Shown here in pieces: positions 1,220 to 19,049 of a stretch of DNA of 22,736 nt. Under the pieces are notes generated by a model. That model was not told the DNA's origin. It worked only from the letters and a program-made list of their open reading frames with translations, and searched no databases. How positions within the stretch are numbered: the stretch's first letter is position 1; each line of letters opens with the position of its first letter. The translations under genes were made by a program, and so were the position numbers. Location of the stretch: positions 1-22,736 of the forward strand of contig CAVQGX010000005.1 of assembly GCA_963712115.1 (NCBI GenBank). The letters are read 5' to 3'. This stretch comes from an uncultured delta proteobacterium (GTDB taxonomy: Bacteria; Desulfobacterota; Syntrophobacteria; BM002).

Positions 1220-1594
1220 ATGAAGGTGATGACAAAAAAGAACTTGAGCGAAATAATGGGGATTTGTGACCAACGTAGACACACGAGACTGAAGAAAAAC
1301 TTTCAGGTGACGTTACACAAGAGAGTTCCTGTTAATCTAGATTTATTGCTGAAAGGAAATACCTTGGATCTGAGTCGAGGTGGTTCCTTCATTGAGACTG
1401 AAGGCTGGCATCTTTTCGAACCTAATGAGGTAACGGAACTTACTTTCTTTTTCCCAACGGGCTTTAGCGGCAAGGATACTCCTATTGGTTTACAGGGATC
1501 AGCTATTGTCAGAAGAGTCGATAAATTAAGAGAAGGGATCGCTGTAGAGTTTATCAATGAGCTCAGGCATTTTAAACAAATCGCAGTGTGTTGA
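1220..1594 (+). CDS. PilZ domain protein (c-di-GMP receptor) 1
   Basis: RxxxR (RRHTR) and DxSxxG (DLSRGG) motifs plus GIAVEF strand. Start uncertain (1139/1220/1229); GGAG at 1214. Confidence 0.85.
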   Translation: MKVMTKKNLSEIMGICDQRRHTRLKKNFQVTLHKRVPVNLDLLLKGNTLDLSRGGSFIETEGWHLFEPNEVTELTFFFPTGFSGKDTPIGLQGSAIVRRVDKLREGIAVEFINELRHFKQIAVC

Positions 1595-1694
1595 TGATCC
1601 TGCAAACACCTGTGGCCCGGACGTACCTCATGACGAGAATATCCCCTTAGTTCCATTGGATCGTACACTCAAAGTCTGATTGGCGTGTTTGGAG

Positions 1695-1750
1695 TTTGCA
1701 TATCATACTTTAATTCAAACTTTTGCTGTTGTGAAACCACCACAACAGAG
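1695..1750 (+). repeat. B-M half-site (B 1695-1719 TTTGCATAT CATACTT TAATTCAAA; left half of M at 1741)
   Basis: Matches B consensus. CACAACA begins 22 bp after the B end, as in the other copies. Confidence 0.85.
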
Positions 1751-1797
1751 GTATTAGAGCATTTAAGTTGTATTTGAGAGAGAGGTACAATGATCTC

Positions 1798-2121
1798 ATG
1801 AAAGATAGACGGCAATATGCACGAGCAGAAGTTAAGTGGCCTGTGACTATTATATCCTCTGAGCAAAAAGCTTCTGGTGAAATAGAAAGCATCAGCCAAG
1901 TGGGTGCATGCATTTACAGCCAAGAACTACCTCTACCAGGACAAGAATTGTCATTGGTGATTCAACCTCCCAATCGCCAGTCATTCTGTGTCTTTGCCAA
2001 AACAATTTGGGGAGTTGACGCTGGCTCCCCAGAAAAGCCATACCGATTTGCCCTTGGTGTGCAGTTTGAAGACATCTCGGAAGATGACATTCAATTTATT
2101 AGTGAGATTGTTTCCAAATAG
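1798..2121 (+). CDS. PilZ domain protein 2 (paralog of 3927-4259)
   Basis: RQYAR motif, SISQVG in place of D/NxSxxG, GVQF strand. GAGG RBS upstream. Confidence 0.88.
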   Translation: MKDRRQYARAEVKWPVTIISSEQKASGEIESISQVGACIYSQELPLPGQELSLVIQPPNRQSFCVFAKTIWGVDAGSPEKPYRFALGVQFEDISEDDIQFISEIVSK

Positions 2122-2202
2122 TTAACATATGCTCAAAATACTTTATTAATCCCTGTGTTAGTGTAGGCTTGATGATCTGAAGCCCAGGCTAGTCCCCTGG
2201 AC

Positions 2203-2309
2203 TGTGAATTACATACTTTAATCCACACTTTTCCCCCGAAGAACCCACTACCACAATTTGTGCTAGATTCACTGGGAGCAAAAGTGTAAATTAAGGGATG
2301 TAATTCACA
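2203..2309. repeat. Complete tripartite B-M-A site (B 2203-2227, M 2249-2262, A 2285-2309)
   Basis: TGTGAATTACATACTTTAATCCACACTTTT ... AAAAGTGTAAATTAAGGGATGTAATTCACA is an imperfect 30-bp inverted repeat around TACCACAATTTGTG. Confidence 0.92.
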
Positions 2310-2494
2310 CTTTCGATGTGACCGAGGTGAGTTTACATTTCTCGTTATTATATGTATTTTGGGAATACCTTGTTTTCGGGCCAATGCTGAAAACGAATAC
2401 TGATTTAGATCAGTCTAGAAGTAGACAAATATCGTTTTCTATGTTTTCCATGCAGCGAACGACAACTCCGTTTGGAAGATCGGACTAGATTAGA

Positions 2495-3331
2495 ATGATT
2501 AGGCTATCGTTTTATTACTTGGTGGCGGCATTGCTCGCTGCCTGTGCAACAATGAATCCAGCTAGCAATCCTGCCGAATTGGCTCGCACATTGGATAAAG
2601 CCATTGTAGCTATACCCGTTAGTAAGTATTCGAAAAACATTGATTCCGAAAGTGATTATGCTGATGTGTATGATAAATTTTGGCAAGTTAAGAATGAAAT
2701 GGCGAAAATACCGGACGAGGCCAAGATACCATTAGTGATCTATATGCATGGCTGCGGTGGAATTATGTTTAGAGAGCGTGTTCATATTCGTTTTCTCTTT
2801 GATAATAACTACGCAGTCCTTGCCCCCGATAGTTTTGCTCGCGACTACAAGCCTAAAAGCTGTAATCCCTATAACCTTACAGGAGGTTTCCATAGGGGGG
2901 TGCTGAGGTATCGATTGGCTGAAGCGCGTTTTGCTTACGAGTTTGCAAAAACACTACCTTGGGTAGATAAGCAAAACATTTTCCTAATGGGCTTTAGCGA
3001 GGGAGGGATAACAACTGCGAGATATGGTCAAGGCGGCCTAGCTGGAAGAGTAATTTTGGGATGGACTTGTAGTGCGGGGTGGACAGAATATAGGGGCATT
3101 GTAGGACCCAGAGATGAACCCATACTTGCAGTAGTTTCTCTAAAAGACCCCTGGTTTAGTGAACCTTGGATGCATGGTAACTGCGGTATGTTTATGGCGT
3201 TCAGAAAAAATAGCGAATCCGTTGTCTTAGATGGGCCTTATCATGATGTTCTGGCGTTGCCTGGAGTACAAGAAAAAGTGATTCAATTCCTTAGGGCTCG
3301 CACTCACTCCTCGAAGCCTGAAGACGGGTAA
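2495..3331 (+). CDS. Lipoprotein, dienelactone-hydrolase-like alpha/beta hydrolase
   Basis: Lipobox LAAC, HGCGG oxyanion region, nucleophile elbow GFSEG, and candidate Asp (KDPW) and His (YHD). Confidence 0.85.
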   Translation: MIRLSFYYLVAALLAACATMNPASNPAELARTLDKAIVAIPVSKYSKNIDSESDYADVYDKFWQVKNEMAKIPDEAKIPLVIYMHGCGGIMFRERVHIRFLFDNNYAVLAPDSFARDYKPKSCNPYNLTGGFHRGVLRYRLAEARFAYEFAKTLPWVDKQNIFLMGFSEGGITTARYGQGGLAGRVILGWTCSAGWTEYRGIVGPRDEPILAVVSLKDPWFSEPWMHGNCGMFMAFRKNSESVVLDGPYHDVLALPGVQEKVIQFLRARTHSSKPEDG

Positions 3332-3386
3332 GTACAGAGCTCTATTTAATCGTTAATGTGGGAAGTCCGCACAGCTTTTTCCAAAC

Positions 3387-3441
3387 TTTACATATCATAC
3401 TCCACACTTGCCCTTTTGAGAACTGACCACAACATCTGTGG
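3387..3441 (+). repeat. B-M half-site with 5-bp deletion in B (TTTACATAT CATAC-----TCCACA; M 3428-3441)
   Basis: Aligns to B consensus with TTTAA missing. M (CACAACATCTGTGG) begins 22 bp after the B end. Confidence 0.78.
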
Positions 3442-3448
3442 GTTTAAG

Positions 3449-3588
3449 GCTATTCATTTGTCAAAGAACGAATGGGGCATTTGCCACGCTTTTTTCTCAG
3501 GACAACAACCCCCGCTCCTGAGAGAGCCTGTTTAGCTTTCCTCCTAACAGTATTGGTGCATGGCTAATCCCCTGGCATGCTTTCTGCA
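3449..3588 (+). repeat. About 140-bp noncoding module duplicated at 14834-14975 (hairpin plus sigma54 promoter)
   Basis: Shared blocks in the same order: GCTATTCATT-GTCAAAGAA, CAACAA-CCCCGCTCC, GAGCCT, GTATTGGTGCATGGCTAATCC, TGGCAT..CTGCA. Confidence 0.9.
3573..3588 (+). promoter_or_regulatory. Putative sigma54 (-24/-12) promoter
   Basis: TGGCATGCTTTCTGCA: GG-N10-GC, about 50 bp upstream of the lipoprotein start. Confidence 0.65.
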
Positions 3589-3638
3589 CATAAATTTAGC
3601 TGGAAATTGGTACCAACTAACTGAATATGGAGTTACTA

Positions 3639-3893
3639 ATGAAAAGATGTCTATTAGTCCTCTTCATCCTTCTTGTAACTGCCTGCTCCCACGCTCCAGA
3701 ATATCCCCTTCCCGATCCACCCTATTTCGCATCTGTCTCAGGGCAACGCTGCGCAATTGAATGTCGGCAAGAGGATTATGAATGCAAAATGGATTGCCTA
3801 GGAACCAAAAGCGAACAGATTGCATGTGTTTCTGAATGCAACCAGGGGCTCGACCAGTGCTACCAGCTTTGTACAGTGGTATTAGAGTTGTAA
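3639..3893 (+). CDS. Small cysteine-rich lipoprotein
   Basis: GGAG RBS at 3629, signal peptide with lipobox VTAC, and two C-x3-C-x6-C-x3-C blocks. Confidence 0.75.
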   Translation: MKRCLLVLFILLVTACSHAPEYPLPDPPYFASVSGQRCAIECRQEDYECKMDCLGTKSEQIACVSECNQGLDQCYQLCTVVLEL

Positions 3894-3926
3894 CGGTAAT
3901 ATCGGGGAGAGAGGTACAATGGTCTC

Positions 3927-4259
3927 ATGAAAGATAGACGGCAATTCGCACGAGCAGAAGTTAAGTGGCCTGTGACTATTCTATCCCCTGAGCAACAACC
4001 TCCTGGTGAAATAAAAAGCATCAGTCAAGTGGGTGCATCCATTTACTGCCAAAAACTACCTCCAGCAGGACAGGAACTCTCATTGGAGATTCAACCTCCC
4101 AATCGCCAGTCATTCTTAGTCTTTGCCAAACCAATTTGGGCAGTTGACGCTGACTCCTCAGAAAGGCCATACCGATTTGTCTTTGGTGTCCAGTTTGAAT
4201 ACATCTCAGAAGATGACCTTCAGTTCCTTGGTAACATTGTTTCCCAACAGTCGCATTAA
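3927..4259 (+). CDS. PilZ domain protein 3 (paralog of 1798-2121)
   Basis: RQFAR, SISQVG, GVQF motifs. About 75% aa identity to PilZ 2 by manual alignment. Confidence 0.88.
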   Translation: MKDRRQFARAEVKWPVTILSPEQQPPGEIKSISQVGASIYCQKLPPAGQELSLEIQPPNRQSFLVFAKPIWAVDADSSERPYRFVFGVQFEYISEDDLQFLGNIVSQQSH

Positions 4260-4924: not shown

Positions 4925-5263
4925 ATGAGCACTGACAACCGCCGCCACTTTAGAGCTAGAGTCAAATGGCCTGTTTTAATCCAGACTCCCACCGACCTCG
5001 TTGATGGAAAAACTGAAAACCTCAGTCTAAGCGGTGCATTCATCCGCCTATCGAAGCAATTGAACTCCAGTGCCGAAATACCTTTAGTCCTAAATGCCAA
5101 GGGACGGTTCATACCATGTAACGCTCAAATCGTCTGGTCTGACGAGCGCAACCTTTCAGACCAGAGAAAATTCCTTGGAATCGGAGTGCGCTTCACTCGT
5201 ATGATGCTCCACGACCGAGAGTTTCTTTATCGTGAAATTTCAAATGACGCTAGGGTTAAATAA
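4925..5263 (+). CDS. PilZ domain protein 4
   Basis: RRHFR and NLSLSG motifs, GIGVRF strand. Confidence 0.88.
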   Translation: MSTDNRRHFRARVKWPVLIQTPTDLVDGKTENLSLSGAFIRLSKQLNSSAEIPLVLNAKGRFIPCNAQIVWSDERNLSDQRKFLGIGVRFTRMMLHDREFLYREISNDARVK

Positions 5264-5315
5264 GCTATCTTCAATCAGACGTCATAGGATGGCGAGAGGA
5301 AGAGTCTGAGTAAAT

Positions 5316-5859: not shown

Positions 5860-6055
5860 CCCTAACGACATCAAACGAGTCAAACTTTATTCTGTCAAAT
5901 ATTCAAAATAAAATAACCGTAGTGGTTCAGCCAGACGAAAAAATGTGTCCTGTGCGTGGTACCGCGCTGCCAGCACAAGAGAAGTTATAGCAACTCCCGC
6001 TGCCCGAACAACCTCTTTAACTTCGCAGCCAGCATCATTGCTACGAGAGTAAAAA

Positions 6056-7064: not shown

Positions 7065-8100
7065 CCCTAATGTTGCATAAAAATCTGGTTTACGTCGATT
7101 TTGCTTCTAAGCTGCCTTTTGCACTGCCTCCAAGAAGTGCAGAAGATCTTTGCGAACTGCTGGGTTTGCGCTCATGGTGAGTGTCAGTTGGCCCTGGGGT
7201 CGTATGAGCCGTCCGGCGCGTTGAATGAAGCGGTGTCTGAGGGTATCTAGAGTTTGGAACTTCCAAGCTGCGGGGCGTTTCGGGCGAGCTCGCAGCAAGG
7301 GTGGATTTGCCAGCATTTGTATTTCTCGGGCTAAGTTGTGAGCCATCATCGCGCAAAGGGTATAGACCTGGTTGCCTGCCAAGCGCCGAGTGGGAATGAC
7401 ATTGAGGCCACAGTTGTTTTTGGCCTCGCCGAAGATGGCTTCTTGGGAGCTGCGGCCATTATGAAACAGCACGACGCTTTTGGCTGAGTTGGTTTTGTTG
7501 GTAACGATAACCTTATATTGGTAGTTGAAGTCACGTGGTTCAAACAGATCAAGTTGCAAAGGGCCTTTATATTGGCTTTTAACTCTTCTGCGAGTGAAAA
7601 TGAACCGATATTTCGTCTGCCACGATTTTGGCTTCCACCTGGCCTCAAAGTATGACCACTGCCTATCAACGATCCGCCAGCGTTGTCGCACCTCAATCAT
7701 TTGTTTGAGCTCTGCAAATCTTTCGAAGGGGACAGAGCCTGTAAACTGCACCTTGTTGGTATCAAAGACATCAAATATCTCCTTGTTGAAGAAAGCTGCA
7801 TCGATTCGCGATTCAAATCTGGTATTCGCTAGCTCGCTTCGTGCTTTTTCAAAACAGCGCATCATGAAATCAACGGCACCATTGGAGTCATGGACATTGC
7901 CAGGGCGGTGATGCACGTCAAAGAATTGGCCTGTTTGCGCGACGCTGCAAAACAGTGGATAGTAACTGCGTGCACCCTTTTTCCTTTTGTTGAAACCGAC
8001 AGCCGTGCCCTCTGCATGCGCTTTGGTGCTGAGCACGGAGCCATCAAAATCCAAGGTCAGGTTTATTTGTGAAAAACCCGATTTTTATGCAACATTAGGG
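7065..8100 (-). mobile_element. IS1380-family element, internally deleted, inserted in a B site
   Basis: 21-bp perfect terminal IR CCCTAATGTTGCATAAAAATC, with ATTA on both flanks (7061-7064, 8101-8104). Only 1036 bp long. Confidence 0.9.
7107..8054 (-). pseudogene. IS1380-family DDE transposase, 5'-truncated
   Basis: Begins at LTLDFDGS (first catalytic Asp region) about 40 bp from the IR. Also has RIDAAF and [15 protein letters not shown] motifs. The N-terminal part is absent. Confidence 0.85.
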
Positions 8101-8193
8101 ATTACTTTAATCTAAACTCTGGCTACTTCAGAGCACGTCCCACATTTTGTGTTAGCCTTTCAGGGGGCAAGGTATGTCATACTTTAGATCAGA
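8101..8193 (+). repeat. Remainder of IS-split B site (to 8116), M box (8138-8151) and a second B-like core (8169-8193) where A is expected
   Basis: ATTACTTTAATCTAAA, then TCCCACATTTTGTG 22 bp later, then GGGGGCAAGGTATGT-CATACTT-TAGATCAGA. Confidence 0.7.
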
Positions 8194-8381: not shown

Positions 8382-10022
8382 TTAAGATTTCAATTGTAAT
8401 CGACAAGCTATATCGTGAACCATCTGACCTTTTCGCGCCTTATCCAAAGCCGCTCTATTAACAATTTGGGCGACGGAATCAGCAAGAATCTCATACTCTT
8501 CTTTGTTTCGTAATCGTTTTTTCTCCGCTTCGATTTCAGCCATAATCCTTTGAGAAATCAAGGTCAGTGCCGCTCTCAGTGTTCCCGAACCATAGGAATC
8601 CATGTTATCAGTCATCTGTCTACAAACATTTGACAAATTGACCCAAAACTTTCTCGGGAATGAAACCTCTGTTTTCAGCTCATCGTGTTTGTCACCACGC
8701 TTTTCTATAATATGTAGTCTGATCTTCGGATACGAAGCAGCTTCAACGTGCAACACCACAGATTTGTTGCTTCCTTGCTCAATGCTACTCTCTTTCCTAT
8801 TTCGAACGAATAGATCAGTTCTCCGAATAATACTAATACCTTGGATCTGTTTTGAAACCGGAGGATTTATGAGTTCTTGATCTTCCTCAGAAACCCTCGT
8901 AAAGCGCGCGCCATGAGACACAACTTCGCTGTCATTGCATTGGACGTCTGACTTTTTTTCCTTCATGTTGAACATTTCTTGGTCTGCAAATGCGAGCAGT
9001 TCGGTCTGGTCAGTGGCGTCGTAGGGAAAAGTAGCGACTCCGAAACTCGCCCGAATACTGACTTTATATCCCTGGTCGGCAAGATAGACCGCTTGTCTCA
9101 TTTGTGATCGAATGGTTTCAACCACTTGTAAGGCCTGACTCTTGCTGAAACCGGGCAATACTACGATAAACTCATCCCCGGCATAAGCTACACCGTAAGC
9201 AGGTTCTGAAAGAACACTTCTGATGGTAGCGCCTACTTCCTGAATGGCCTGGCTGGCATTAAGATGGCCGTAAGTGTCCACCACGTGCTTAAAGTTATCA
9301 AGGTCCAAGAAGATTAGTGAAAACGTTTGGGTATTGGCAACACTATCCTCAATCAGTTCATCCAAGGCCTTATAGAGGTAGCGGGTGTTGTAAAGGCCGG
9401 TTAGATCGTCGTGGATGGCAAGGTTGCGGAATTTCTCCTCACTTTTCCTCAGCGCCTCCTCTACACGTTTTCGGGCATCATCGGCTTCCATCTTCTTGGA
9501 AACAATTGTCAGGCAGCCTAAGGAAAGGCTGATTCGATCTTCCTCAAAAGACTCTACAGTCGCCTGATCTTTGAACCAAAAAACTTCGCCACTTTGAGTA
9601 GAACTCTTGTAAACAGCCTCAACGATTCCTTTATCCTGAACCTCTTTGCGCAGCTTGCTTCTGGACCCTTTCAATTCCCGATGACTGAGAACTTCTTCCT
9701 TAACACTCCAATCCGTTTCAAGAGATTTGTATATGCGTCGTTCGAGGATGCTGTTACGAAAAGTCTCAGCGGCTTGCGAATATTCAGACCCCAAAATTCT
9801 GACAAAGCGTCTACTGACAAATTCATACCAGATGACTTTCTCTTCTTCGTGCCAGGCAGCAATATAAGGGATTGCCAATGTACCGAGATTATCAAATGCC
9901 CGAAAGATCAAAATACATTCCGCAACCCTTCTTTTTAACCTTTGACTGTATGGTCCGTGAAGAATTTGGCCGTAATAATCCCTTTCACAGAGCAAGATAA
10001 GCGTATTATTATCTGTCTTCAT
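8382..10022 (-). CDS. Diguanylate cyclase-like (GGDEF-domain) protein with AGDEF motif, PAS-like N-terminus and unrecognised C-terminal domain
   Basis: DDLTGLYN, DLDNFKHVVDTYGH, YAGDEF, ASFGVA and ADQEMF motifs. Confidence 0.9.
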   Translation of the reverse strand: MKTDNNTLILLCERDYYGQILHGPYSQRLKRRVAECILIFRAFDNLGTLAIPYIAAWHEEEKVIWYEFVSRRFVRILGSEYSQAAETFRNSILERRIYKSLETDWSVKEEVLSHRELKGSRSKLRKEVQDKGIVEAVYKSSTQSGEVFWFKDQATVESFEEDRISLSLGCLTIVSKKMEADDARKRVEEALRKSEEKFRNLAIHDDLTGLYNTRYLYKALDELIEDSVANTQTFSLIFLDLDNFKHVVDTYGHLNASQAIQEVGATIRSVLSEPAYGVAYAGDEFIVVLPGFSKSQALQVVETIRSQMRQAVYLADQGYKVSIRASFGVATFPYDATDQTELLAFADQEMFNMKEKKSDVQCNDSEVVSHGARFTRVSEEDQELINPPVSKQIQGISIIRRTDLFVRNRKESSIEQGSNKSVVLHVEAASYPKIRLHIIEKRGDKHDELKTEVSFPRKFWVNLSNVCRQMTDNMDSYGSGTLRAALTLISQRIMAEIEAEKKRLRNKEEYEILADSVAQIVNRAALDKARKGQMVHDIACRLQLKS

Positions 10023-10596: not shown

Positions 10597-11616
10597 TTAG
10601 TTTGGTACGGCAGTCAATTGTTGTTGGATTCGTCCTTGGTTGACCTGTCTCCTTCGTTCTTTGGCAATTTGAACCATCTGCCTGTAGTGATTGAGAAGCT
10701 GGCTCTTGTTTCCGAGACGGTGGACATCGCCAGGGGTATAGTTCCACAGGGCCTGATGGGGCCGTTGTTCGTTGTAGTAGTCAATGTAGTGGGCCAGGCA
10801 CAGGCGAGCGATCTCTTCTGAAAGATACGTGGGATAGCAGTAGATCTCTTCTTGTTTCACTGTCCGGTACCAGCGTTCCTGTCGGGCATTATCCGTAGGA
10901 CGATACGCTCTTGCTGGGGAGAGCAGCATCTCCAGGTCTTTGATCAGCCGCCTGGTCTTGATCGCCGTATTGGGTGAACCCTGATCTACCCGGACAATGG
11001 GTTTGGGATGTTGATGCTCGATTCTCTCACTCATGTAGGCAAGTGCCAGGAGTGCTTGAACCTCTCGTTGGGTGACGGTCTTCACCACGGCCCAGGCTAC
11101 GATGTAACGGGAAAAATAGTCGATAATAGTGAGCAGGTAATGCCTCAATCCGGTAATCGACAGAATGGTCCAATCCTCTCCCCAGATCTGGTTCGGGCGA
11201 AACGGTTCATATCGAGCTACTTTCCAGGGAGCCGTCCGCAGACAGGCAGCCATGACCCAGCCGAGAGCTTTGAGCCGACGGTAGCAACTCGAAGGGCTGA
11301 TCCAATGACCGTCCTGTCGCAACAAACCACTGACTTGGCGATGGCTGAGCTGAGGCTCTCCTTTCTTCTTCTTGATGATGGCGTGCTGTTCCTCAGCAGT
11401 CAGACGGAGCACGGCGGCCGACTTCTTTCGGACTGTAGGAGGGTTCAGCCAAACATAGTATGTGGAACGACAGACCCCAAGGCCCCTGAGCGTCTCTGAT
11501 ATGGAAAATCCTTGAGCACGGAGCCTTTGGACTTCCTCGAGGATCCGATGCCGCTGCTCCTGGCTGTAGGTGGCTCCCGTGGGACGGTTCGTTAGAGCAA
11601 GTTCATCTCTTTTTTT
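10597..11616 (-). CDS. IS3-family transposase OrfB (integrase-core DDE), probably expressed as an OrfAB fusion by -1 frameshift
   Basis: WGEDW, IIDYFSR, RVDQG and NARQERWYRTVKQE motifs. A7G slippery run at 11609-11616 on the minus strand. Confidence 0.88.
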   Translation of the reverse strand, partial: KKRDELALTNRPTGATYSQEQRHRILEEVQRLRAQGFSISETLRGLGVCRSTYYVWLNPPTVRKKSAAVLRLTAEEQHAIIKKKKGEPQLSHRQVSGLLRQDGHWISPSSCYRRLKALGWVMAACLRTAPWKVARYEPFRPNQIWGEDWTILSITGLRHYLLTIIDYFSRYIVAWAVVKTVTQREVQALLALAYMSERIEHQHPKPIVRVDQGSPNTAIKTRRLIKDLEMLLSPARAYRPTDNARQERWYRTVKQEEIYCYPTYLSEEIARLCLAHYIDYYNEQRPHQALWNYTPGDVHRLGNKSQLLNHYRQMVQIAKERRRQVNQGRIQQQLTAVPN

Positions 11617-11909
11617 AAAAGCATCAGCTCTTGGGTCTGCAGAGCCAGGGCTTCCTTCAGTCTCTGGTTCTCTTTCTCCAGCTTCTTGATGCGGGGATCC
11701 AATCTGGGCTTCTTCCCACTCAGAAACGCTTGCGCACCCTGCTCCAGAGCTTTCCTCCATCGGTAGAGGGTCTGAGGATGGATCTGATACTTCTCCGCTA
11801 CCTCGACACCGTTTCCAGATCGCTCCCATTCCCTGAGAATCTGGAGCTTCTGCTGAGGGGTAAACCTTTTGGCCTTTCGCCGAGTTGGGATGACTAGTTG
11901 TACGCTCAT
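11592..11909 (-). CDS. IS3-family transposase OrfA (HTH plus leucine zipper)
   Basis: RFTPQQKLQIL...VAEKYQIHPQTLYRW HTH and IKKLEKENQRLKE zipper. AGGAGG RBS upstream. Confidence 0.9.
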   Translation of the reverse strand: MSVQLVIPTRRKAKRFTPQQKLQILREWERSGNGVEVAEKYQIHPQTLYRWRKALEQGAQAFLSGKKPRLDPRIKKLEKENQRLKEALALQTQELMLLKKEMNLL

Positions 11910-12201
11910 GCATCTTCCTCCTCCTGGTGACTATAGCACTCTCTTGAGCGTCCAACTAACACCTTTTAGGGGCTGAAACTGTCTAGATCGGATTGAAACA
12001 TTATACTGCATTGATAGAATCTTTTTATATCCTGATAGAGAGAAATCAATTAATAAAAGATACGAAAATATCTTGGATGTGGCTGCGGATTTGTTAGCTG
12101 GCGAGTGGAAATGAAAGCAGGGAGTCTCCGGCGCTATATTGCAGAGAAGTGAAACTTAATCATTAGTAGCTTAGGTCCGCCCCGCAATTCATAGAAATAC
12201 A

Positions 12202-12309
12202 TATCATAATCATACTTTTCTGCACATTTCTGCCTCTTGAGGACCAGCTACCACGTTCTGTGTTGAGGTTTCAGGTGTGGAAAGTGTGACTTAAGGGATG
12301 GAATCTCCA
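12202..12309. repeat. Complete tripartite B-M-A site (B 12202-12226, M 12249-12262, A 12285-12309)
   Basis: TATCATAAT CATACTT TTCTGCACA ... TACCACGTTCTGTG ... TGTGACTTA AGGGATG GAATCTCCA. Same geometry as 2203-2309. Confidence 0.9.
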
Positions 12310-12445
12310 GTTTGCTCCCTTCCGTTTTGAGGCAACCGATTCATCTAAAAAATGCTGGTTTTTCGGTTCACTCGTGATAAAATACAAGCGGGTTACAGAG
12401 TAGGAGATTCAGTTACTCTGCATCATCCTACTCCCTCAGACATTG

Positions 12446-12488
12446 CCCCCACTGGCCAACGGTGCCCCGGCCAGTGGGGGATTTTTTT
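12446..12488 (+). terminator. Rho-independent terminator-like hairpin
   Basis: CCCCCACTGGCC / GGCCAGTGGGGG 12-bp stem followed by ATTTTTTT. Confidence 0.7.
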
Positions 12489-12503
12489 GGCATTGAGTTT
12501 GCA
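12488..12503 (+). promoter_or_regulatory. Putative sigma54 promoter
   Basis: TGGCATTGAGTTTGCA, GG-N10-GC. Confidence 0.7.
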
Positions 12504-12623
12504 TTAGTGAATCCGTGGGGTGAGCAAATTGCTCCCTCCTTGGTCCAGTCTCCTTCCTACTACAACCCTTGACTATCCCCATTGGTCCTATCTGGTGCCG
12601 TAGGCTGATGGGGATAACTTTTT

Positions 12624-13181
12624 TTGAACCGCTTTGACTTGACGGAGCTGGCTTTCCGAGTAAGGTCAATTCTCCGGACACGCTACATAGCCGATGAACT
12701 GGAGAGAGCAATAGCTTATATTGGGGAACTGGAGAAGGATTCCACGGCTTTAACAAAAGTAGATTTACGAGAAACTGCAATCAGTGAGAGATCTATGGAT
12801 GCCTTTATTGAGTGGGAGACATGTAAGAGAGGTACATGGTGTAATCTTTCAGAACTAGATTTAGGCCATGAGCATTTCGATGACATGGAAGGCGTGTACT
12901 TTATATGGCAAGGCGAAGAGAATCCAGTAGCCCTGCGAGTTAGCCACGGCTTAATCAGGGAATGCTTGGCCAGAGAGCAAAATGATAAAGACGTACTGGG
13001 CAACCTAAAGGATGAAATCTATGTGACTTGGGGGAAAGTCGATCGAAAATTCTGTGGTGGTATTGTCAGATATATTGAAAACATACTCCAACCAGCACTA
13101 GAAAGTTCCTCCCCAGATGTCGAATCAATCGAGGCAAACATACCCTCACCCTGGTACGAAGAAAGTTTCCCTTGGGAATAA
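12624..13181 (+). CDS. Hypothetical protein, C-terminal half possibly a degenerate GIY-YIG-like fold
   Basis: 185-aa ORF with GVYFIW and IYVTW motifs. The second Y(I/V)G motif is not conserved. TTG start uncertain. Confidence 0.6.
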   Translation: MNRFDLTELAFRVRSILRTRYIADELERAIAYIGELEKDSTALTKVDLRETAISERSMDAFIEWETCKRGTWCNLSELDLGHEHFDDMEGVYFIWQGEENPVALRVSHGLIRECLAREQNDKDVLGNLKDEIYVTWGKVDRKFCGGIVRYIENILQPALESSSPDVESIEANIPSPWYEESFPWE

Positions 13182-13216
13182 TATGCTCACTAATGTTGGT
13201 TTTTCAAAAAACACTA

Positions 13217-13239
13217 CGGGATTCGTCCCGCTTTTTTTT
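13217..13239 (+). terminator. Terminator hairpin (variant of GCGGAG family)
   Basis: CGGGA-TTCG-TCCCG followed by C and T8. Confidence 0.7.
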
Positions 13240-13261
13240 GTTCAGTGCATTCTGCCTAGAG

Positions 13262-13317
13262 TGAGCATTACATACATCTAAACTTTGTCTCTGAAGAAGC
13301 TACTACCATATGTTGTA
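13262..13317 (+). repeat. B-M half-site with 4-bp deletion in B (TGAGCATTA CATAC----ATCTAAA; M 13304-13317)
   Basis: The linker and M, CTTTGTCTCTGAAGAAGCTACTACCATATGTTGTA, align with CTTTTCCCCCGAAGAACCCACTACCACAATTTGTG at 2228. Confidence 0.8.
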
Positions 13318-13559
13318 CTATTTATTTAAAACCCGATCCCAACGGTCGGAATATAAATTGCAGTTTCCCAGTGAATAAGTTGGAGTAAACTTTTCTCATC
13401 ATTAAATGTACTTTTCTAACCTCTAGGTTTTAGATATTCTTGTTTATCTTTAAACCCACCAAAGTTTACATGTTGGCGAGAGATATATCATTACCCATTA
13501 TTAGTAACCATCCCCTCATGATGATCGAACTAATAAAAAGAATCTCCCAATAATTAGCT

Positions 13560-13575
13560 TGGCACATGCGTTGCA
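13560..13575 (+). promoter_or_regulatory. Putative sigma54 promoter
   Basis: TGGCACATGCGTTGCA, near-consensus -24/-12. Confidence 0.78.
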
Positions 13576-13744
13576 TCCTTCCCTCTGTGTAAGCAAAAAG
13601 CCTTCCTTTCCATACAGGTTAAACATTTTCTTTTTTTCAAGAGAGGGTTGCTATCCTAGTGATAGCAGCCCTTTTGCTATGGAAGGGTTTGTTAGACATG
13701 CTTGAAAGCCAATACCTAATCTGTAGAGGTTTATATTCGGAGGT

Positions 13745-14182
13745 ATGATATTGCATACAGTGAATGGTATCGAGCAACGTCAGCATCCTAGGGCCGAAAT
13801 CAGCTGGTCTGTAACTTTGAGACCATCTTGGGGGACAATAAAGGGAGAAACGCTAAATGTTAGCTCTATGGGTGCTTTTATCAAGAGTTCTGAGCCGCTG
13901 AAGTTTAATGAAGTTTTCATACTGGATATGGATGTTCTCGCACTAGATTATCCATTAAAGGCCATCGCTGAAGTGGTATGGTTGAACAGCAAAGGAAATA
14001 AAAATGAAATTACACCATATGGGATGGGGATTCGCTTCATAAGAATCTCAAGTGCGGACCGAAGATTCATTTTTAATGAGGTACTAAAGCATCTCAACTC
14101 AGAGAGTGTGGAAACCGGCTCTTCTGTGGTTTTTCAGACTACAGCTGTCGATCAAGAAGTCGAATCCGGTGAAGCTATTTGA
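13745..14182 (+). CDS. PilZ domain protein 5
   Basis: RQHPR, NVSSMG, AEVVW and GMGIRF motifs. Confidence 0.9.
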   Translation: MILHTVNGIEQRQHPRAEISWSVTLRPSWGTIKGETLNVSSMGAFIKSSEPLKFNEVFILDMDVLALDYPLKAIAEVVWLNSKGNKNEITPYGMGIRFIRISSADRRFIFNEVLKHLNSESVETGSSVVFQTTAVDQEVESGEAI

Positions 14183-14307
14183 GTGTGAATGGGTTAATCC
14201 TTGGAGATTTTGGGATGATTTCTGCGCATCATAGCCATTATTAAATCTTTCCTGGGTGAGTGCAAACTCACGAGATGATGAACTTTTATTGTAAGGAGGT
14301 TACTGCC

Positions 14308-14721
14308 ATGAGAAAGTTACTTTTCCTTCTCCCATTCCTGGTACTGGTCGCTATGTGCTTAGGCTTGCAAGCCACGAGCCAGGCCCAAGATAACTCTCAT
14401 CTGGAAGTCGCTGCATCTGCAATCTGCAAGGATGTAGTTGATCTGGAACCTGTGGACAGCGGCACTAGTTTCGTCGCTGAGGAAGGCGGACTCTATTGTT
14501 TTACTAAGATTACCGGTGCCCAGAGTCCTTCTCATGTGACACACGTATGGTATTTCGACGGCACCGAGAGAGCCAGGGTAGACCTGGCTGTCAATTCCAT
14601 CGCATGGCGCACCTATAGCTCGAAGATTATACAGCCACATGAGCTAGGGGCGTGGCATGTAGATGTTCTCGATTCACTGGGCAACGTGCTGAAGACTCTA
14701 AAGTTCGAGGTCGCGCCATAA
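14308..14721 (+). CDS. Secreted DUF2914-family protein
   Basis: AAGGAGG RBS and signal peptide. LYCFT, VTHVWY, WRTYSSK and GAWHVDV motifs. Confidence 0.8.
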   Translation: MRKLLFLLPFLVLVAMCLGLQATSQAQDNSHLEVAASAICKDVVDLEPVDSGTSFVAEEGGLYCFTKITGAQSPSHVTHVWYFDGTERARVDLAVNSIAWRTYSSKIIQPHELGAWHVDVLDSLGNVLKTLKFEVAP

Positions 14722-14801
14722 GATAAAATTTTCTTTTGAATAAGATCCAAGCGGTCCTCGCTATGATTCAAGGGTTGAAGGACTATGCTGTCAAACCGAG
14801 A

Positions 14802-14833
14802 AAAAGGCAGGGTCAGCAATGGCTCTGCCTTTT
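14802..14833 (+). terminator. Bidirectional terminator, related in sequence to 22668-22700
   Basis: AAAAGGCAGGGTC-AGCAAT-GGCTCTGCCTTTT. Confidence 0.75.
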
Positions 14834-14975
14834 GCTATTCATTAGTCAAAGAAAATAGCGGAGCTTAGACTCCGCCATTTTATTCAGCGCAACAATCCCC
14901 GCTCCCGAAAGAGCCTATTGAGTTTCCTTCCCAACCGTATTGGTGCATGGCTAATCCTCTGGCATATTTCCTGCA
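14834..14975 (+). repeat. Second copy of the 140-bp hairpin plus sigma54 promoter module
   Basis: Aligns to 3449-3588. GCGGAG hairpin at 14858-14875 and TGGCATATTTCCTGCA at 14960-14975. Confidence 0.9.
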
Positions 14976-15098
14976 GTTTTTTCCTCTTCGAAGGAGAGAG
15001 ACTGATCCCCTCTCTTCTTCTAAAAATACCTCCATCTAGCACCGCTCCCACACCGAGATTTCCGGTGTGGGGGCAAACACCCTAGGGAAAGAAACGAA

Positions 15099-15485
15099 AT
15101 GCCGCAAAAAGATAGACGCAAACATCAAAGAGCAAAAGTAGTGTGGCCTGTAATCATGGAAAACAACCGAAATATCATAAGCGGTGAAACGCAAGATATA
15201 AGTGCTGGTGGAGCATATATACGTTGTCGTACACCACTGAAGCCCGTTGAGGTTTCCATGTATGTCAGTGTCTCTTTTTTAAGCCCTCGTATAAGAGCCA
15301 TGGCAGAAGTTGTCAGGTCAGATGTTCTTGGATCAGCTAATGGGGTTGACTACTATGGTATAGCAGTTAGGTTCGTAGCAATTTCTAATGAAGCCCGGGA
15401 ACTCATCTCACTTGAATTTCAGGACACAAAATTGTCACCTCCTACAACAACGTCGGTATCCCCAACTCATCAGCCACACCCTTAA
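15099..15485 (+). CDS. PilZ domain protein 6
   Basis: RKHQR, DISAGG and GIAVRF motifs. Confidence 0.9.
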   Translation: MPQKDRRKHQRAKVVWPVIMENNRNIISGETQDISAGGAYIRCRTPLKPVEVSMYVSVSFLSPRIRAMAEVVRSDVLGSANGVDYYGIAVRFVAISNEARELISLEFQDTKLSPPTTTSVSPTHQPHP

Positions 15486-15541
15486 CGTCAATGGTCATCA
15501 GGGCAATACTATCTCCTTCTATTCCCCCTGCCTTGACAACT

Positions 15542-15601
15542 CTCAATATCTTGTGCCAGATTAGAATCCAGGCGAGTGTGAATTAAGGGATGTAATCTTT
15601 G
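15542..15601 (+). repeat. M-A half-site (M 15542-15555, A 15577-15601)
   Basis: CTCAATATCTTGTG then TGTGAATTA AGGGATG TAATCTTTG. Confidence 0.88.
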
Positions 15602-15751
15602 CTTTCACGCTAGACGGTCTCGTCCAGTTTGATCTGAATTGGTATTTTTTTTCCACTTCTATGGTCTTCTCTTCCCAATCACTAAATCAAACTTTTCATA
15701 CACCATGCCATAAGTTATTGAATTTCAGTCTAATTAATTAGACTCCTAATG

Positions 15752-15767
15752 TGGCACAATCTTTGTT
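15752..15767 (+). promoter_or_regulatory. Possible sigma54 promoter (imperfect -12)
   Basis: TGGCACAATCTTTGTT, with GT instead of GC at -12. Confidence 0.4.
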
Positions 15768-15906
15768 TATCTAGACTACATGTTGAATACCCATTAATTC
15801 TGCTGCCAGACTCCAACACTGCATGTTTGGGTCATCTTTTGGAGGATCTTTCATGCATACAGTTTTCCTTAACTCAGCGGCTCTAATGAAAAGCGGGGCA
15901 GTTTAG

Positions 15907-16140
15907 ATGACAACCTCGGAGAAAAGGATACTTGAAGCGAATCTATTTCAATTCGTCATCCGCCTTCGCTCCTGGCTCAGAAACCAGATTAACAGGATTA
16001 AAGCAATTTCAGTGGCTTTATTGGCGCTAATCCTGATTGTACTCGTAAGGTTACTTTGTCTATTTGTGGGCAGAACTGAAGCGCCAGAAATAGATTTACG
16101 AGAAGTTGAGGCAGAGTCAGACGAGAAAGTAATTTTTTAG
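15907..16140 (+). CDS. Small hypothetical membrane protein
   Basis: 77 aa with one hydrophobic segment (AISVALLALILIVLVRLLCLFV). Confidence 0.5.
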   Translation: MTTSEKRILEANLFQFVIRLRSWLRNQINRIKAISVALLALILIVLVRLLCLFVGRTEAPEIDLREVEAESDEKVIF

Positions 16141-16168
16141 TCGTGGATGAAATCCTTTCGAGGTCTCA

Positions 16169-16600
16169 ATGTTTCCGGAGTTATACTTATCCGTAGGGTA
16201 TGTTTTTCTGGTAAGTCTGCTTCTACTAAGGGATGAATATCTAACCAGGAAGATTAAGAAGAAACGCCTTGACGTCCGAGCCAAACTCTCTTGGCCAGTC
16301 ACGGTCCAAACTATCGCAGGACCCATTTGCGGTCACACGGAAAACATTAGCGTATCTGGTGCTTTATTGGTCTGTCTACAGCCATTATGCAAGGGTGAAA
16401 TACTAAAAGTAGTCTTAAATGTTCCAAGTCGGCCCTTGGAGGTAGACGCAGAGGTAGTTTGGACCGACATGTATCGACCCTCTGAAAAAAACTATCCTCA
16501 CAATGCAATCGCCGTCCAGTTCAAACGGATTTCAGATGAGTCCAGAAGTTTTTTGGCCCTAGCAGTGCATAATCGCTTGAACACTGATAAGCGTTCGTAG
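16169..16600 (+). CDS. PilZ domain protein 7 with N-terminal hydrophobic anchor
   Basis: RLDVR, NISVSG, AEVVW and AIAVQF motifs. GAGG RBS and hydrophobic residues 5-20. Confidence 0.88.
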   Translation: MFPELYLSVGYVFLVSLLLLRDEYLTRKIKKKRLDVRAKLSWPVTVQTIAGPICGHTENISVSGALLVCLQPLCKGEILKVVLNVPSRPLEVDAEVVWTDMYRPSEKNYPHNAIAVQFKRISDESRSFLALAVHNRLNTDKRS

Positions 16601-16619
16601 GCTCAAATACTGGAGAGAT

Positions 16620-16644
16620 AGCGGAGCTTCGGCTCCGCTTGTTT
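16620..16644 (+). terminator. GCGGAG-family hairpin with UUCG loop
   Basis: AGCGGAGC-TTCG-GCTCCGCT followed by TGTTT. Confidence 0.75.
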
Positions 16645-16726
16645 ATACGCTAAATAGCTTGTCCCAACCTGACTTCTAGCAGAAGCACAGATAAAAGCCT
16701 AACAAGGAACACTTACCATCCATAGC

Positions 16727-18016
16727 ATGAGGCACACGATGAGTTCATACAACAAGAAAAAGATGATCCTATCCATCCTTATAATCCTGATGTTGTGGTC
16801 CATAGCTTTGCTCCTAGGATTAGGATATCGAGACGTCTCTGCTTTTTTCCAAGGACAGGCGGAGGCCTCTGTGAGTCGTGTGGGGCATTTGAACGAAAAG
16901 AAACTTTGGCCTCCCTTGCAACGCCTCTTGGGAGCCCAAGTGCTTACTCTCAAATGTAAAAACTATGATGAGGTGGAACAGAGCATTGTAGATCTCAGGG
17001 AGGCAGGCGTTAATACTTTAATTGTTCGTGCATTTCAAAACCGCGGCGACACATTTCATCATTTTGCTAGTCCGCGATGTCAGGCAGGGGTCTATTTTGA
17101 AACCGAACACGGGGAGGTCGTGGACCCGATGTTAACACGACTTGTCTCTATTGCGCACCGACATGATCTTAAAGTGTTTGCTTGGATGGAGACACGGAAG
17201 ATGCCCCTTAGGTTGACTAATCCTGAAAGGGCCCAAGCAGTGCGTTATGATTTCGCCCAAAAAACCTTTGAACTAATACCTATGTGGAGCATCTTTGCCG
17301 AGGAGGTCCAGAGGAGCCTTATGGCACTCTACCAGGATGTGGCGAGAACAGGAATCGATGGAATCTTGGTTCAGGATGATTTAGTCATGTACCAGTATGA
17401 AGACTTCTATCCAGAAGCAGTATCACTGTTTGAGAGGGAAACAGGCAAGGTGCTCAGCCCGAAGACGCTCTACCTTTCGATTTTCAAAAGTCCTAAAGGA
17501 CGCTGGTTCGTACGCAATTACTCATACAACTTCTGGAGATGGTCACGCTGGAAAAATCAAAAACTTCTAGACTTAGCACGCAACCTCATCAGAGCTACCA
17601 GGGAAGTCAATCCAAACATAAAGTTCGCCCTCAACTTCATGTACGAGTCGGTAACCGACCAGGACAACGCCCTGGCATGGTTGTCTCAGGATCTTGAGGC
17701 GGCCATGAGACTCCCAATCGACTTCTATGCCATAATGGCCTACCACAGACAAATCAAAAAGGAGCTACATCTGAGCGATGAGGAAACCTATGAAAAAATC
17801 GCCAGCATGACAGCAAGACTCCTGCGGGTGATTGATGATCCCAGTAAGATCTTAATGAAAATACAGGTAAAGGATTGGGATACTCGCAAACAGATACCCT
17901 CCATTGAAATAGATGAGGTCCTTAGGAGGATAGATAGTCAAAATCAAATCAGCCTCGCTTTCGTACCCTACTCCGGCAGACATTCTCTTGAAGTGATCAG
18001 CCGCTATTTTCGATGA
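16727..18016 (+). CDS. PgaB C-terminal-like (GH153/GHL13-type) glycoside hydrolase, membrane anchored
   Basis: GVYF, KVFAWM, LYQDVA, IDGILVQDD, AWLSQD and AIMAY parallel the PgaB/HmsF C-terminal barrel. N-terminal TM helix; start uncertain. Confidence 0.75.
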   Translation: MRHTMSSYNKKKMILSILIILMLWSIALLLGLGYRDVSAFFQGQAEASVSRVGHLNEKKLWPPLQRLLGAQVLTLKCKNYDEVEQSIVDLREAGVNTLIVRAFQNRGDTFHHFASPRCQAGVYFETEHGEVVDPMLTRLVSIAHRHDLKVFAWMETRKMPLRLTNPERAQAVRYDFAQKTFELIPMWSIFAEEVQRSLMALYQDVARTGIDGILVQDDLVMYQYEDFYPEAVSLFERETGKVLSPKTLYLSIFKSPKGRWFVRNYSYNFWRWSRWKNQKLLDLARNLIRATREVNPNIKFALNFMYESVTDQDNALAWLSQDLEAAMRLPIDFYAIMAYHRQIKKELHLSDEETYEKIASMTARLLRVIDDPSKILMKIQVKDWDTRKQIPSIEIDEVLRRIDSQNQISLAFVPYSGRHSLEVISRYFR

Positions 18017-18043
18017 ATACCAAAGTTGTCCATCGTACTGCAG

Positions 18044-18200
18044 ATTGCATATATCCCCACTTTTGCCATTTAAGACCAAGCTACAATATCTTGGTTTAAT
18101 CTAAGAAAATGCGGAGTTTTTGGCTCCGCTTTTTTCTTCTCAACATCTTGTGCCTGAGCTTTCTGATGGGGAAACTGTGAATTAAGGGATGGTATCTACA
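18044..18200 (+). repeat. Split site: deleted B (18044-18059), M (18082-18095), GCGGAG hairpin (18111-18135), M (18139-18152), A (18176-18200)
   Basis: ATTGCATAT---------ATCCCCA CTTTTG, TACAATATCTTGGT, CTCAACATCTTGTG and TGTGAATTA AGGGATG GTATCTACA, with conserved spacings. Confidence 0.85.
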
Positions 18201-18454
18201 GGTTTGCTCCCTCCTTTTTGACCCAGCCAATTAATCGAAAATGGTGGTTTTTCGTGTTGACACATCTCTGCTTCTTATTTCACCCTTATGTGATTGTTCC
18301 CCATCACCTTAGCTTTTCTTCTCCTCGGACCTGCAATCACCTAAGATGCTATAAGTAATTAATAAATTACTTTAGCTTTGTTTTGTTAATATATATATTT
18401 TAGGCACTTAAATTACCATAGATGGCCATATAGTTACCTACACAACTGCTAAGA

Positions 18455-18470
18455 TGGTCTAATCTTTGCA
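18455..18470 (+). promoter_or_regulatory. Putative sigma54 promoter
   Basis: TGGTCTAATCTTTGCA, GG-N10-GC, 45 bp before the ATG at 18516. Confidence 0.5.
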
Positions 18471-18515
18471 TGTACTTTTGTGGCAATATGGCTAACTATA
18501 CGGTACCAATGCACC

Positions 18516-19049
18516 ATGAATCAGAAAAGAAAAAGCTACAACACCACTCTCAGGGCTGACCTAACCAGACGGCTCCGCATCCTCGCAGCCCAGAGGAGCA
18601 AGCGGCACAATGATCTTCTGGAAGAGGCTATACAAGACCTTTTAACCAAATATGAAAAATATGAAAAAGACTCCCAAGTACCGACTCTTAGTCCAGTCCC
18701 TAAAGCAGAAAGGCGCGAGCATCCTAGAGCTGAAGTATCATGGCCTGTAAGTATGATTACCGCTCAAGGCTTATTTCAAGGAGAAATCAAAGATATCAGC
18801 AAAGGTGGTGCACTCATCCAATGTACAGAACTGCCCAAAACAGATGAGCCCCTTGAATTAAGCATTGAGATAACCGACCACCTTTTAAGCATATCAGCCA
18901 CCGTGGAAAAGGTTAGGCTAAATCTTGATGATAGTGACAAAGCCCTTCCTTCATATGATATGGCTGTCCGCTTTCTGGGAATTGAGGCTGACCAAAGTAA
19001 ACATCTGTTCAATGCTATTGAACACAAAACCCGAACAATTGCCATTTAA
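18516..19049 (+). CDS. Ribbon-helix-helix - PilZ fusion protein (PilZ 8)
   Basis: N-terminal RKSYNTTLRADLTRRLRILAA...NDLLEEAIQDLL has RHH pattern. C-terminal REHPR, DISKGG and MAVRF motifs. Confidence 0.85.
   Translation: MNQKRKSYNTTLRADLTRRLRILAAQRSKRHNDLLEEAIQDLLTKYEKYEKDSQVPTLSPVPKAERREHPRAEVSWPVSMITAQGLFQGEIKDISKGGALIQCTELPKTDEPLELSIEITDHLLSISATVEKVRLNLDDSDKALPSYDMAVRFLGIEADQSKHLFNAIEHKTRTIAI

Follow-up and report, generated by a model that had tools for sequence, protein, structure and literature searches.

A chromosomal array of exchangeable gene cassettes as a possible reservoir of c-di-GMP receptors in an uncultured Desulfobacterota bacterium

Eight genes for PilZ domains, all in the same orientation, lie within a single contig of an uncultured delta proteobacterium from sediment, a member of the Desulfobacterota, and the question raised by this locus is what has gathered them there. 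The window, by which we mean the whole analyzed stretch of 22,736 nucleotides, is the entire contig C5 of a metagenome-assembled genome (MAG; here G000) of 4.9 Mb in 70 contigs, with 94% completeness and 6% contamination. Known cassette arrays are mostly stores of resistance, toxin-antitoxin, or defense genes that are moved by integron integrases. A sequence-only reading of the window had proposed an array with a different cargo, namely, a library of parts for signaling by cyclic di-GMP (c-di-GMP), and our analyses put at about 60% the probability that the window represents an assembled fragment of a gene-cassette array in the chromosome, which would act as an exchangeable c-di-GMP receptor reservoir added to a PilZ expansion of the whole lineage.

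The PilZ genes themselves were readily verified. A Pfam scan of 30 open reading frames (ORFs) of the window placed all eight PilZ ORFs proposed earlier above the PF07238 gathering cutoff of 22.5 bits, with scores of 33.9 to 53.0 bits, and all were on the forward strand, at positions 1139 to 1594, 1768 to 2121, 3927 to 4259, 4925 to 5263, 13745 to 14182, 15099 to 15485, 16169 to 16600, and 18480 to 19049. Three of these coordinates use possible earlier starts (1139 rather than 1220, 1768 rather than 1798, and 18480 rather than 18516). The c-di-GMP-binding motifs of PilZ domains are RxxxR and D/NxSxxG, and alignment of the eight genes reproduced the motif counts given before: RxxxR was present in all eight and D/NxSxxG in six, while the signature R-A-x-(V/I/L)-x-W-(P/S)-V occurred in seven. 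The sole gene without this signature (RAxVxWPV) was the first, which carries RxxxR and DxSxxG, and the paralogues at 1798 and 3927 have SxSxxG instead of D/NxSxxG; at the DNA level, the former is 89% identical to positions 3900 to 4199. The GTG start at 18480 gives the last gene an N-terminal ribbon-helix-helix (RHH) domain (PF20605, 29.1 bits; cutoff, 27.2), so that this RHH-PilZ fusion is a possible c-di-GMP-responsive DNA-binding protein. With 8 genes in 22.7 kb versus 136 matches in 4.9 Mb, PilZ genes are ∼12.7 times denser in the window than in the genome, which is not due to chance.

A repeated site made up of an A core, an M motif, and in some cases a B copy runs through the window and the genome. 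The A core reads TGTGAATTA-AGGGATG-TAAT..A.T, and the M motif of ∼30 nucleotides (...CATCTTGTGCCAGATTAAAT.CCAGC...) lies upstream of it, while B is an inverted A-like copy (CATACTTTAAT...) found within 140 nucleotides upstream of A in 24 of 93 sites; where B is absent, a rho-independent terminator often precedes M. Allowing up to three mismatches, the 16-mer of the A site had 10 matches in the window versus 0.48 expected, and none of 100 shuffles reached 10. Genome-wide, the M-A profile detected 125 sites on 34 of the 70 contigs, arranged in same-strand runs. Moreover, of the 22 genomes of the order, 18 contained a 21-mer with up to two mismatches (reversed control, 0), as did 16 of the 17 congeneric genomes besides G000, and public MAG contigs carried the exact 20-mer in at least 106 stretches, mostly labeled as Desulfobacterota-type lineages. 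The site string had no match in the literature, and the A/M/B recombination site is previously undescribed.

Within the window, the site marks both contig ends, as the sequence opens with TGTGAATTAAGGGATG and closes with its inverted form, and at least seven further contigs (at least eight including the window) terminate in the same repeat; the assembly breaks at these ends because of the A/M/B repeat. The first copy (positions 1 to 25, forward strand; TGTGAATTA-AGGGATG-ATAT...) is a half or eroded A site, and a B-type half site (CATACTTTAATTCA...) that lacks an M-A partner follows at 1695 to 1747 on the same strand. The complete B-M-A element of 107 nucleotides at 2203 to 2309 (forward strand) has a B-to-A distance of 57 nucleotides, 35-nucleotide arms that are 83% complementary, and a DNA fold of −22.5 kcal/mol, and it includes a good M-A site at 2244 to 2309. 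Half or eroded sites were seen at ∼3400 and ∼8130 to 8190. Farther along the forward strand, good M-A sites lie at 12242 to 12309 (with a B-type copy at 12211), at 15531 to 15598 (64.2 bits, the top score in the window), at 18133 to 18201 (preceded by a terminator hairpin), and at 19099 to 19155, and a B-type site, again half or eroded, occupies the contig end (22712 to 22736). The site at 19099 is split by a forward-strand ISL3-family insertion sequence (19154 to 20500) with perfect inverted ends of 21 nucleotides, which took the A site as its target with an 8-bp duplication (AAATTAAG) and left the remainder of the A site at 20501 to 20522; its transposase is spread over two frames (19285 to 20019 and 20001 to 20486). 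Clean cassettes of the window include those of the PilZ gene at 1798 and the RHH-PilZ gene at 18480, while other genes lie between decayed sites. A CRP-like regulatory palindrome (TGTGA...TCACA) was considered for the site and rejected, given its spacing of 15 nucleotides and that the breakpoints described below would stay unexplained.

To describe how sequences are joined at the site, the 93 A sites were compared pairwise with 100 nucleotides per side. Nine pairs shared only the left flank, five only the right flank, and five both, and in the alignments identity ended within or right after ATTAAGGGATGT; variants of the left arm went with the upstream cassette, and the bases after GGGATGT went with the downstream cassette. 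In some pairs, the ∼20 nucleotides of the core were the sole common sequence, which favors site-specific over homologous exchange. For instance, one PilZ cassette was found behind three different upstream neighbors (C3:121403, C3:127230, and C39:10268; contig and position), the cassette end of the window PilZ gene at 15099 recurred at C3:109 kb with another downstream neighbor, and the PilZ gene at 16169 had a 90% identical DNA copy among other neighbors at C42:5647-6204. Similar results were obtained when window positions 12309 to 19155 were compared by BLAST with 22 genomes: window cassettes recurred singly in other species, and the matches ended at sites. The PilZ-DUF2914-PilZ block (query 1120 to 3288) was 90% identical in G012, ending at the A site 15577 to 15601, and in that genome the order was permuted, the cassette that lies ahead of the block in the window coming after it. 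The single-gene RHH-PilZ cassette (18201 to 19155; match, 18218 to 19155) recurred with 77 to 86% identity in at least six other genomes or species, and the gene for a GHL13-type hydrolase described below had a 93% match in G001. The arrays were also polar: the array strand carried the largest ORF of 41 of 53 cassettes, as well as the PilZ of 17 of 18 PilZ cassettes.

Judged by these comparisons, the window is a real cassette array, polar and equipped with recombination sites of its own. The idea of an array in the sequence-only reading was thus right, given that flanks reassort exactly at the site and cassettes recur behind other neighbors, and the array is more unusual than assumed, with new sites and no integron. 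A cassette would be a self-contained unit, consisting of a 5' region of ∼200 to 340 nucleotides, usually one small gene on the array strand, a terminator or inverted B, the M motif, and the A core. The breakpoints show that cassettes have apparently been cut and rejoined inside the A core, within ATTAAGGGATGT, which would be why the same cassette stands behind different neighbors, both here and in other species. Two cassette 5' regions before small genes share a 98-nucleotide direct repeat (3491 to 3588 and 14878 to 14975, 82% identical), which may represent a common leader or promoter segment. In Logan contigs of four public runs, many site-to-site joints were seen, with sides of only 18 to 33 letters; such joints are what repeats predict and give no evidence of cassette excision. 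Bins containing the site had very high summed depth in these runs. One run from an RNA library yielded contigs across several cassette genes, which does not demonstrate expression, as DNA carry-over is possible.

The distribution of PilZ genes around the sites was determined across the genome. Among the 136 PilZ matches of the profile search, 41 lay within 2 kb of a site, versus 8.2 expected. Taking as a cassette any stretch bounded by two consecutive same-strand sites, we obtained 57 cassettes totaling 98.7 kb, or 2% of the genome, and 18 of them held 22 of the 136 PilZ domains. This corresponds to 0.22 PilZ per kb versus 0.024 elsewhere, a 9.4-fold enrichment with a binomial p of 7e-14 based on counts that are non-independent, some cassettes being duplicated. 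Near-site PilZ domains retained RxxxR in 39 of 40 cases and D/NxSxxG in 36 of 40. Stand-alone PilZ is thus the commonest recognizable cargo in this genome. No publication on PilZ cassettes was found in the literature.

The remaining cargo was annotated with Pfam for 108 ORFs of at least 60 amino acids (aa) from 49 cassettes outside the window, four cassettes not being covered. PilZ domains occurred in 14 of the ORFs, including two FHA-cNMP-PilZ fusions, while 61 had no Pfam match, many of them probably not genes. Other signaling cargo comprised two single-domain response regulators, two more FHA proteins, a cNMP-binding Ser/Thr kinase, and an adenylate-cyclase-TPR protein; envelope cargo comprised two bactofilins, cell-wall peptidases, and SH3, LysM, AMIN, and PKD surface proteins, and three IS110 transposases were also present. 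Near sites in other genomes, a PAS-GGDEF-EAL family and a DUF4388-PilZ family each occurred at four loci. The cargo thus amounts to PilZ receptors accompanied by other small proteins of signaling and the envelope rather than a complete c-di-GMP toolkit, and enzymes of c-di-GMP turnover are not typical of it: the proposed library of signaling parts holds as a collection of receptors and fails as a full set of parts, since GGDEF, EAL, and HD-GYP domains were absent from all 108 ORFs and the sole GGDEF gene of the window runs opposite to the array. Two protein types among the PilZ genes deserve mention. Proteins of ∼200 aa with PilZ and a C-terminal zinc-ribbon tail (..CPVCGS.LP..) were found at C27:119481-120080, C37:99119-99718, C42:20011-20559, and C66:3408-4007; in at least seven cassettes, they terminate right at an M-A site, and a remnant consisting of the tail fragment only lies at ∼5930 to 5990 in the window. 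Proteins of ∼400 to 434 aa that join FHA, cNMP-binding, and PilZ domains (in the regions of C3:4901-5242 and C36:26886-27236 and at C13:10592, C18:146, and C46:150681) link phospho-threonine, cyclic mononucleotide, and c-di-GMP inputs.

Against a receptor reservoir, the same data can be explained without any rule of cargo, by a PilZ family that is very large and dispersed and expands through local duplication, with the repeats being intergenic elements that lie by chance between small genes and are linked to terminators or similar to REPINs (repetitive extragenic palindromic hairpin doublets) or miniature inverted-repeat transposable elements (MITEs), and with the PilZ genes near sites a by-product of small-gene-rich, low-GC variable regions. 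Much of the PilZ distribution weighs on this side and against the reservoir reading. As many as 114 of the 136 PilZ domains lie outside site-bounded cassettes, and within the window several genes sit between eroded or missing sites, so that not every window PilZ is in a clean cassette; the second and third PilZ genes of the window are the 89% identical duplicates mentioned above. The main counter-example to the link between sites and PilZ is a 30-kb stretch, C37:13884-44171, with nine PilZ and no A/M/B site, a cluster that has another origin. Two closed relatives (3.2 and 3.6 Mb) have 63 confirmed PilZ each. In G004, which has 63, only 1 lay within 2 kb of its 21 sites versus 1.24 expected, and the enrichment was thus not replicated; in G003, it was a modest ∼threefold (7 PilZ within 2 kb of 38 sites versus 2.33 expected, p 0.008). 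The suggestion that PilZ genes are enriched at A/M/B sites therefore stands for this genome and, to a lesser extent, for G003, and it does not extend to G004.

The phylogeny of array and nonarray PilZ that had been called for points the same way. The tree contained 127 domains, 40 of them near sites (one further domain was too short to include, and eight more were left out because they probably reflect redundancy of the assembly), and the near-site domains were scattered, with 29 state changes versus 34.2 ± 2.0 in shuffles, of which 14 of 1,000 had 29 or fewer; cassette PilZ are not a separate clade. The signature motif was no commoner near sites (10 of 40) than far from them (21 of 87). In addition, with 6% contamination in the MAG and nine PilZ groups at least 98% identical, the counts are somewhat inflated and non-independent; syntenic PilZ of at least 98% identity were observed on C48 and C67, on C30 and C65, and on C28 and C47, which suggests strain redundancy in the MAG. 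Finally, several results on the recombinase given below also weigh against the reservoir reading.

PilZ expansion is lineage-wide. In a first look in which at most 36 PilZ candidates were scored per genome, candidates numbered 49 to 92 in 14 of the 17 congeneric genomes besides G000 and 17, 30, and 34 in the three smallest or least complete; sister genera had 17 to 45, and of 99 genomes from other families of the class, 98 had 1 to 28 and 1 had none. Site counts and candidate counts were correlated across 22 genomes (Spearman coefficient, 0.64) and less so within the genus (0.40, p 0.10), these genomes being related and not independent. The by-product explanation accounts for this breadth, but it leaves the 9.4-fold density of PilZ in cassettes and their presence in 18 of 57, and plain repeats or homologous recombination hardly explain flanks that reassort precisely at the A core on ∼20 nucleotides, nor does it fit arrays that are strongly polar. 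The inverted partner that a REPIN requires accompanies only 24 of 93 A sites, the other 69 being single, and a REPIN system driven by REP-associated tyrosine transposases (RAYTs) was rejected, since the four Y1_Tnp genes are IS200-like, with other hairpins of the IS200 type, and have no A or B sites at their ends. We therefore regard the by-product explanation as unlikely and keep to the cassette reservoir, in which, as far as sequence comparison can tell, PilZ cassettes have demonstrably been reshuffled, yet form a minority of the lineage-wide PilZ expansion.

If the window is a cassette array, an ordinary integron is the obvious thing to look for, and G000 does have one. A bona fide IntI is encoded at C27:2356-3300 (TIGR02249, 486.9 bits; cutoff, 265), and C27:1-3300 was observed to form a canonical integron, with at least four classical attC-type repeats upstream of the integrase that run off the contig start. 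The consensus of attC is R''/R' = RYYYAAC/GTTRRRY in an imperfect hairpin, which the B/A pair CTTTAAT/ATTAAGG loosely mimics, and the polar layout with one gene per cassette would also suit divergent attC sites used by this IntI. The repeats upstream of intI are, however, canonical attC (...TAAC...GTTA...), with no A/M/B site among them, and the hairpin partner is absent from 69 of 93 sites. Moreover, IntI was present in 6 of 22 genomes versus sites in 18, and it was absent from G002, G003, and G004, three closed genomes that do have sites. With a core of ATTAAGG and a partner of CTTTAAT, and with no IntI next to an array, a canonical integron was rejected and is very improbable as the source of the window; two unrelated cassette systems coexist in this genome.

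No recombinase was found in the window, and the search for a mover leads to other contigs. Next to the first site of the arrays on C39 and C11 lies, in divergent orientation, the gene for a tyrosine recombinase of 411 aa, whose zinc ribbon is N-terminal and accompanied by an arm-type segment (MAILAECP...YWIQYRL). All four homologues of the genus with upstream DNA (two in G000, on C39 and C11, one on C11 of G010, and one in G003) have an M-A site 430 to 1,400 nucleotides upstream on the opposite strand, as does one metagenome homologue of 90% identity. The C39 gene is flanked by an RHH gene of the HicB-like type and by an ordinary gene for membrane transport, and the locus resembles a small platform more than it does a large integrated element. 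The candidate matched TIGR02249 in its C-terminal part only, far below the cutoff; among array-adjacent recombinases, the C50 protein gave a partial match of 49.3 bits (cutoff, 265) and none was listed for the C39 type. On these genomic positions, the zinc-ribbon tyrosine recombinase is the likeliest candidate mover of the cassettes, a tentative assignment at somewhat less than even odds. It was found in only 5 of 22 genomes, two of the four genus copies contain one stop codon (G000 C11 and G010 C11), and none of six distant homologues (42 to 55% identity, at least 800 nucleotides of upstream DNA) had a site upstream. In other genomes, the clustered ORFs of 76 loci included no recurrent recombinase near sites.

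The closed genomes G002 and G004 further complicate this assignment, because they have sites, with the G004 array lying between ordinary BON-domain and cytochrome genes, and their only tyrosine recombinases are two Xer-like ones, with no serine recombinase and no IS110; serine recombinases (PF00239) were absent from all five genomes searched. This would suit cassettes that are moved by the host XerC/XerD, with the zinc-ribbon recombinase a mere integrative element targeting the same site. Consistent with this, an arm-spacer-arm reading of the A site is possible, with a conserved T.AT....A.T in the right arm, and dif modules, whose sites alternate in orientation, offer a parallel to the inverted B copies. 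The likely chromosomal dif (C43:75958, AGTCTGATAA-TGTATA-TTATGTAAACT) is nevertheless unlike the A site, with a weak common pattern in the right arm only; the conserved block, M motif included, exceeds 28 bp; and the G002 and G004 arrays may be inherited fossils. We thus consider Xer-driven movement improbable, more so than the by-product explanation, and keep the zinc-ribbon recombinase as candidate. The mover, though this is among the weaker parts of the model, would then be this zinc-ribbon, arm-type tyrosine recombinase encoded beside the first array site, and genomes lacking it would hold orphan arrays, as CALINs do in integron biology.

IS110-family elements were another conceivable mover. 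Three of them (C41:∼2040-3900, C42:∼17000-18346, and C36:∼18400-19666) were observed at an identical position and in the same orientation within the A site, at AAAGTG^TGAATTAAGG with TG duplicated, and G000 has 14 IS110 transposase matches, several within arrays. As cassette movers they were rejected, because the three insertions lie left of the cassette crossover and IS110 occurs in only 8 of 22 genomes. By analogy with IS1111 elements, which insert in integron attC sites, they would be site-specific parasites of the array sites.

Compared with known systems, these arrays most resemble sedentary chromosomal integrons and CALINs, the latter being attC clusters without an integrase. Both kinds of array are polar, with small, promoter-distal genes that mostly stand alone between copies of a structured site. 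Further shared features are exact reassortment at that site, a candidate tyrosine recombinase divergently placed beside the first site, many genomes with arrays but without the recombinase, and parasitism of the sites by site-specific IS110/IS1111-type insertion sequences. Unlike in integrons, the site is unrelated to attC, with a hairpin partner in only 24 of 93 cases, the candidate recombinase has an N-terminal zinc ribbon and arm-type domain, cassettes have long 5' regions and their own terminators, many small arrays occupy many loci rather than one, and the cargo is dominated by PilZ instead of resistance, toxin-antitoxin, or defense genes. A second comparison is offered by the dif modules of Acinetobacter plasmids (PMC6449649, PMC13141974, PMC10132070), for which XerC/XerD mobility at pdif sites has been proposed. 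Shared with these are small accessory-gene modules with short recombination sites and no dedicated recombinase nearby, shuffling of modules between replicons, and insertion sequences that target a fixed position by the site. The present arrays differ in being chromosomal, with sites that are mostly in direct orientation, are not dif-like, and carry the extra ∼30-nucleotide M motif. With respect to receptor numbers, Myxococcus xanthus, with a genome of 9 Mb, is a useful reference. It has 24 PilZ proteins, 14 of them single domain (PMC8316039). As there, many stand-alone PilZ receptors presumably feed separate outputs; relative to those figures, the ∼127 nonredundant PilZ in 4.9 Mb here and the 63 in relatives of 3.2 to 3.6 Mb are several times denser, and part of the repertoire here is on mobile cassettes.

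The window also holds other genes and insertion sequences. The reverse strand carries an AraC-family regulator (Arabinose_bd plus HTH_18) at 71 to 1066, an insertion sequence with a DDE_Tnp_1-type transposase at 7065 to 8100 (inverted ends of 27 nucleotides, 96% complementary), a gene for a GGDEF-domain protein of 546 aa at 8382 to 10022, and an insertion sequence with an rve-type (IS3-like) transposase and imperfect inverted ends of 28 nucleotides at 10558 to 12009. Flanked by these two insertion sequences and opposite to the array strand, the GGDEF gene (PF00990, 119.4 bits) encodes AGDEF in place of GG(D/E)EF and no RxxD I-site; activity is known for AGDEF variants. On the forward strand lie a cassette gene with a weak dienelactone-hydrolase-like match under the Pfam cutoff (2495 to 3331), a DUF2914 gene (14260 to 14721), and a gene for a GHL13 glycoside hydrolase resembling the C-terminal part of PgaB (16727 to 18016; PF14883, 79.3 bits; cutoff, 27). 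Among solved structures, the latter matched the PgaB C-terminal domain (4p7l, E 3e-7) and a BpsB/HmsF-like protein (6au1, E 2.4e-6), so that the GGDEF protein and the poly-N-acetylglucosamine (PNAG)-type hydrolase named in the sequence-only reading are both present. Toward the contig end, a gene with thrombospondin type 3 repeats (21555 to 22223) contains a 93-nucleotide tandem pair, 87% identical, at 21765 to 21950, beside a gene with an Lcl C-terminal domain (20839 to 21468). None of the 22 window proteins matched a PADLOC defense family, in agreement with the view that the array is unlike defense cassettes, and an Rfam scan of the window gave no match at the gathering cutoff.

Taken together, the array would constitute a variable, exchangeable store of c-di-GMP output receptors plus REC, FHA, and cNMP-binding domains, in which gain or loss of a cassette would mean one c-di-GMP-controlled output more or less while the enzymes of synthesis and breakdown stay untouched. 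That such swapping tunes biofilm formation or motility, as had been suggested, is an inference only. At a more general level, we tentatively suggest, at about one chance in three or slightly better in our estimation, an integron-independent cassette system of a Desulfobacterota genus that is built on the A/M/B site and the zinc-ribbon recombinase and has stand-alone c-di-GMP receptors as its main traffic; if true, output modules of a second messenger would pass horizontally, one gene at a time, from locus to locus and from species to species, a new way of rewiring signaling. An integron-like architecture is met here with an unrelated site, probably another recombinase, and signal receptors as the commonest cargo, and the A/M/B site is a practical marker, as it breaks assemblies and flags variable regions. 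If gain and loss of cassettes alter which outputs answer c-di-GMP, these bacteria would possess a route to rapid, modular rewiring of a second-messenger network, and the cassette system may help to explain how genomes of 3 to 5 Mb in this lineage come to hold 63 to ∼127 PilZ.

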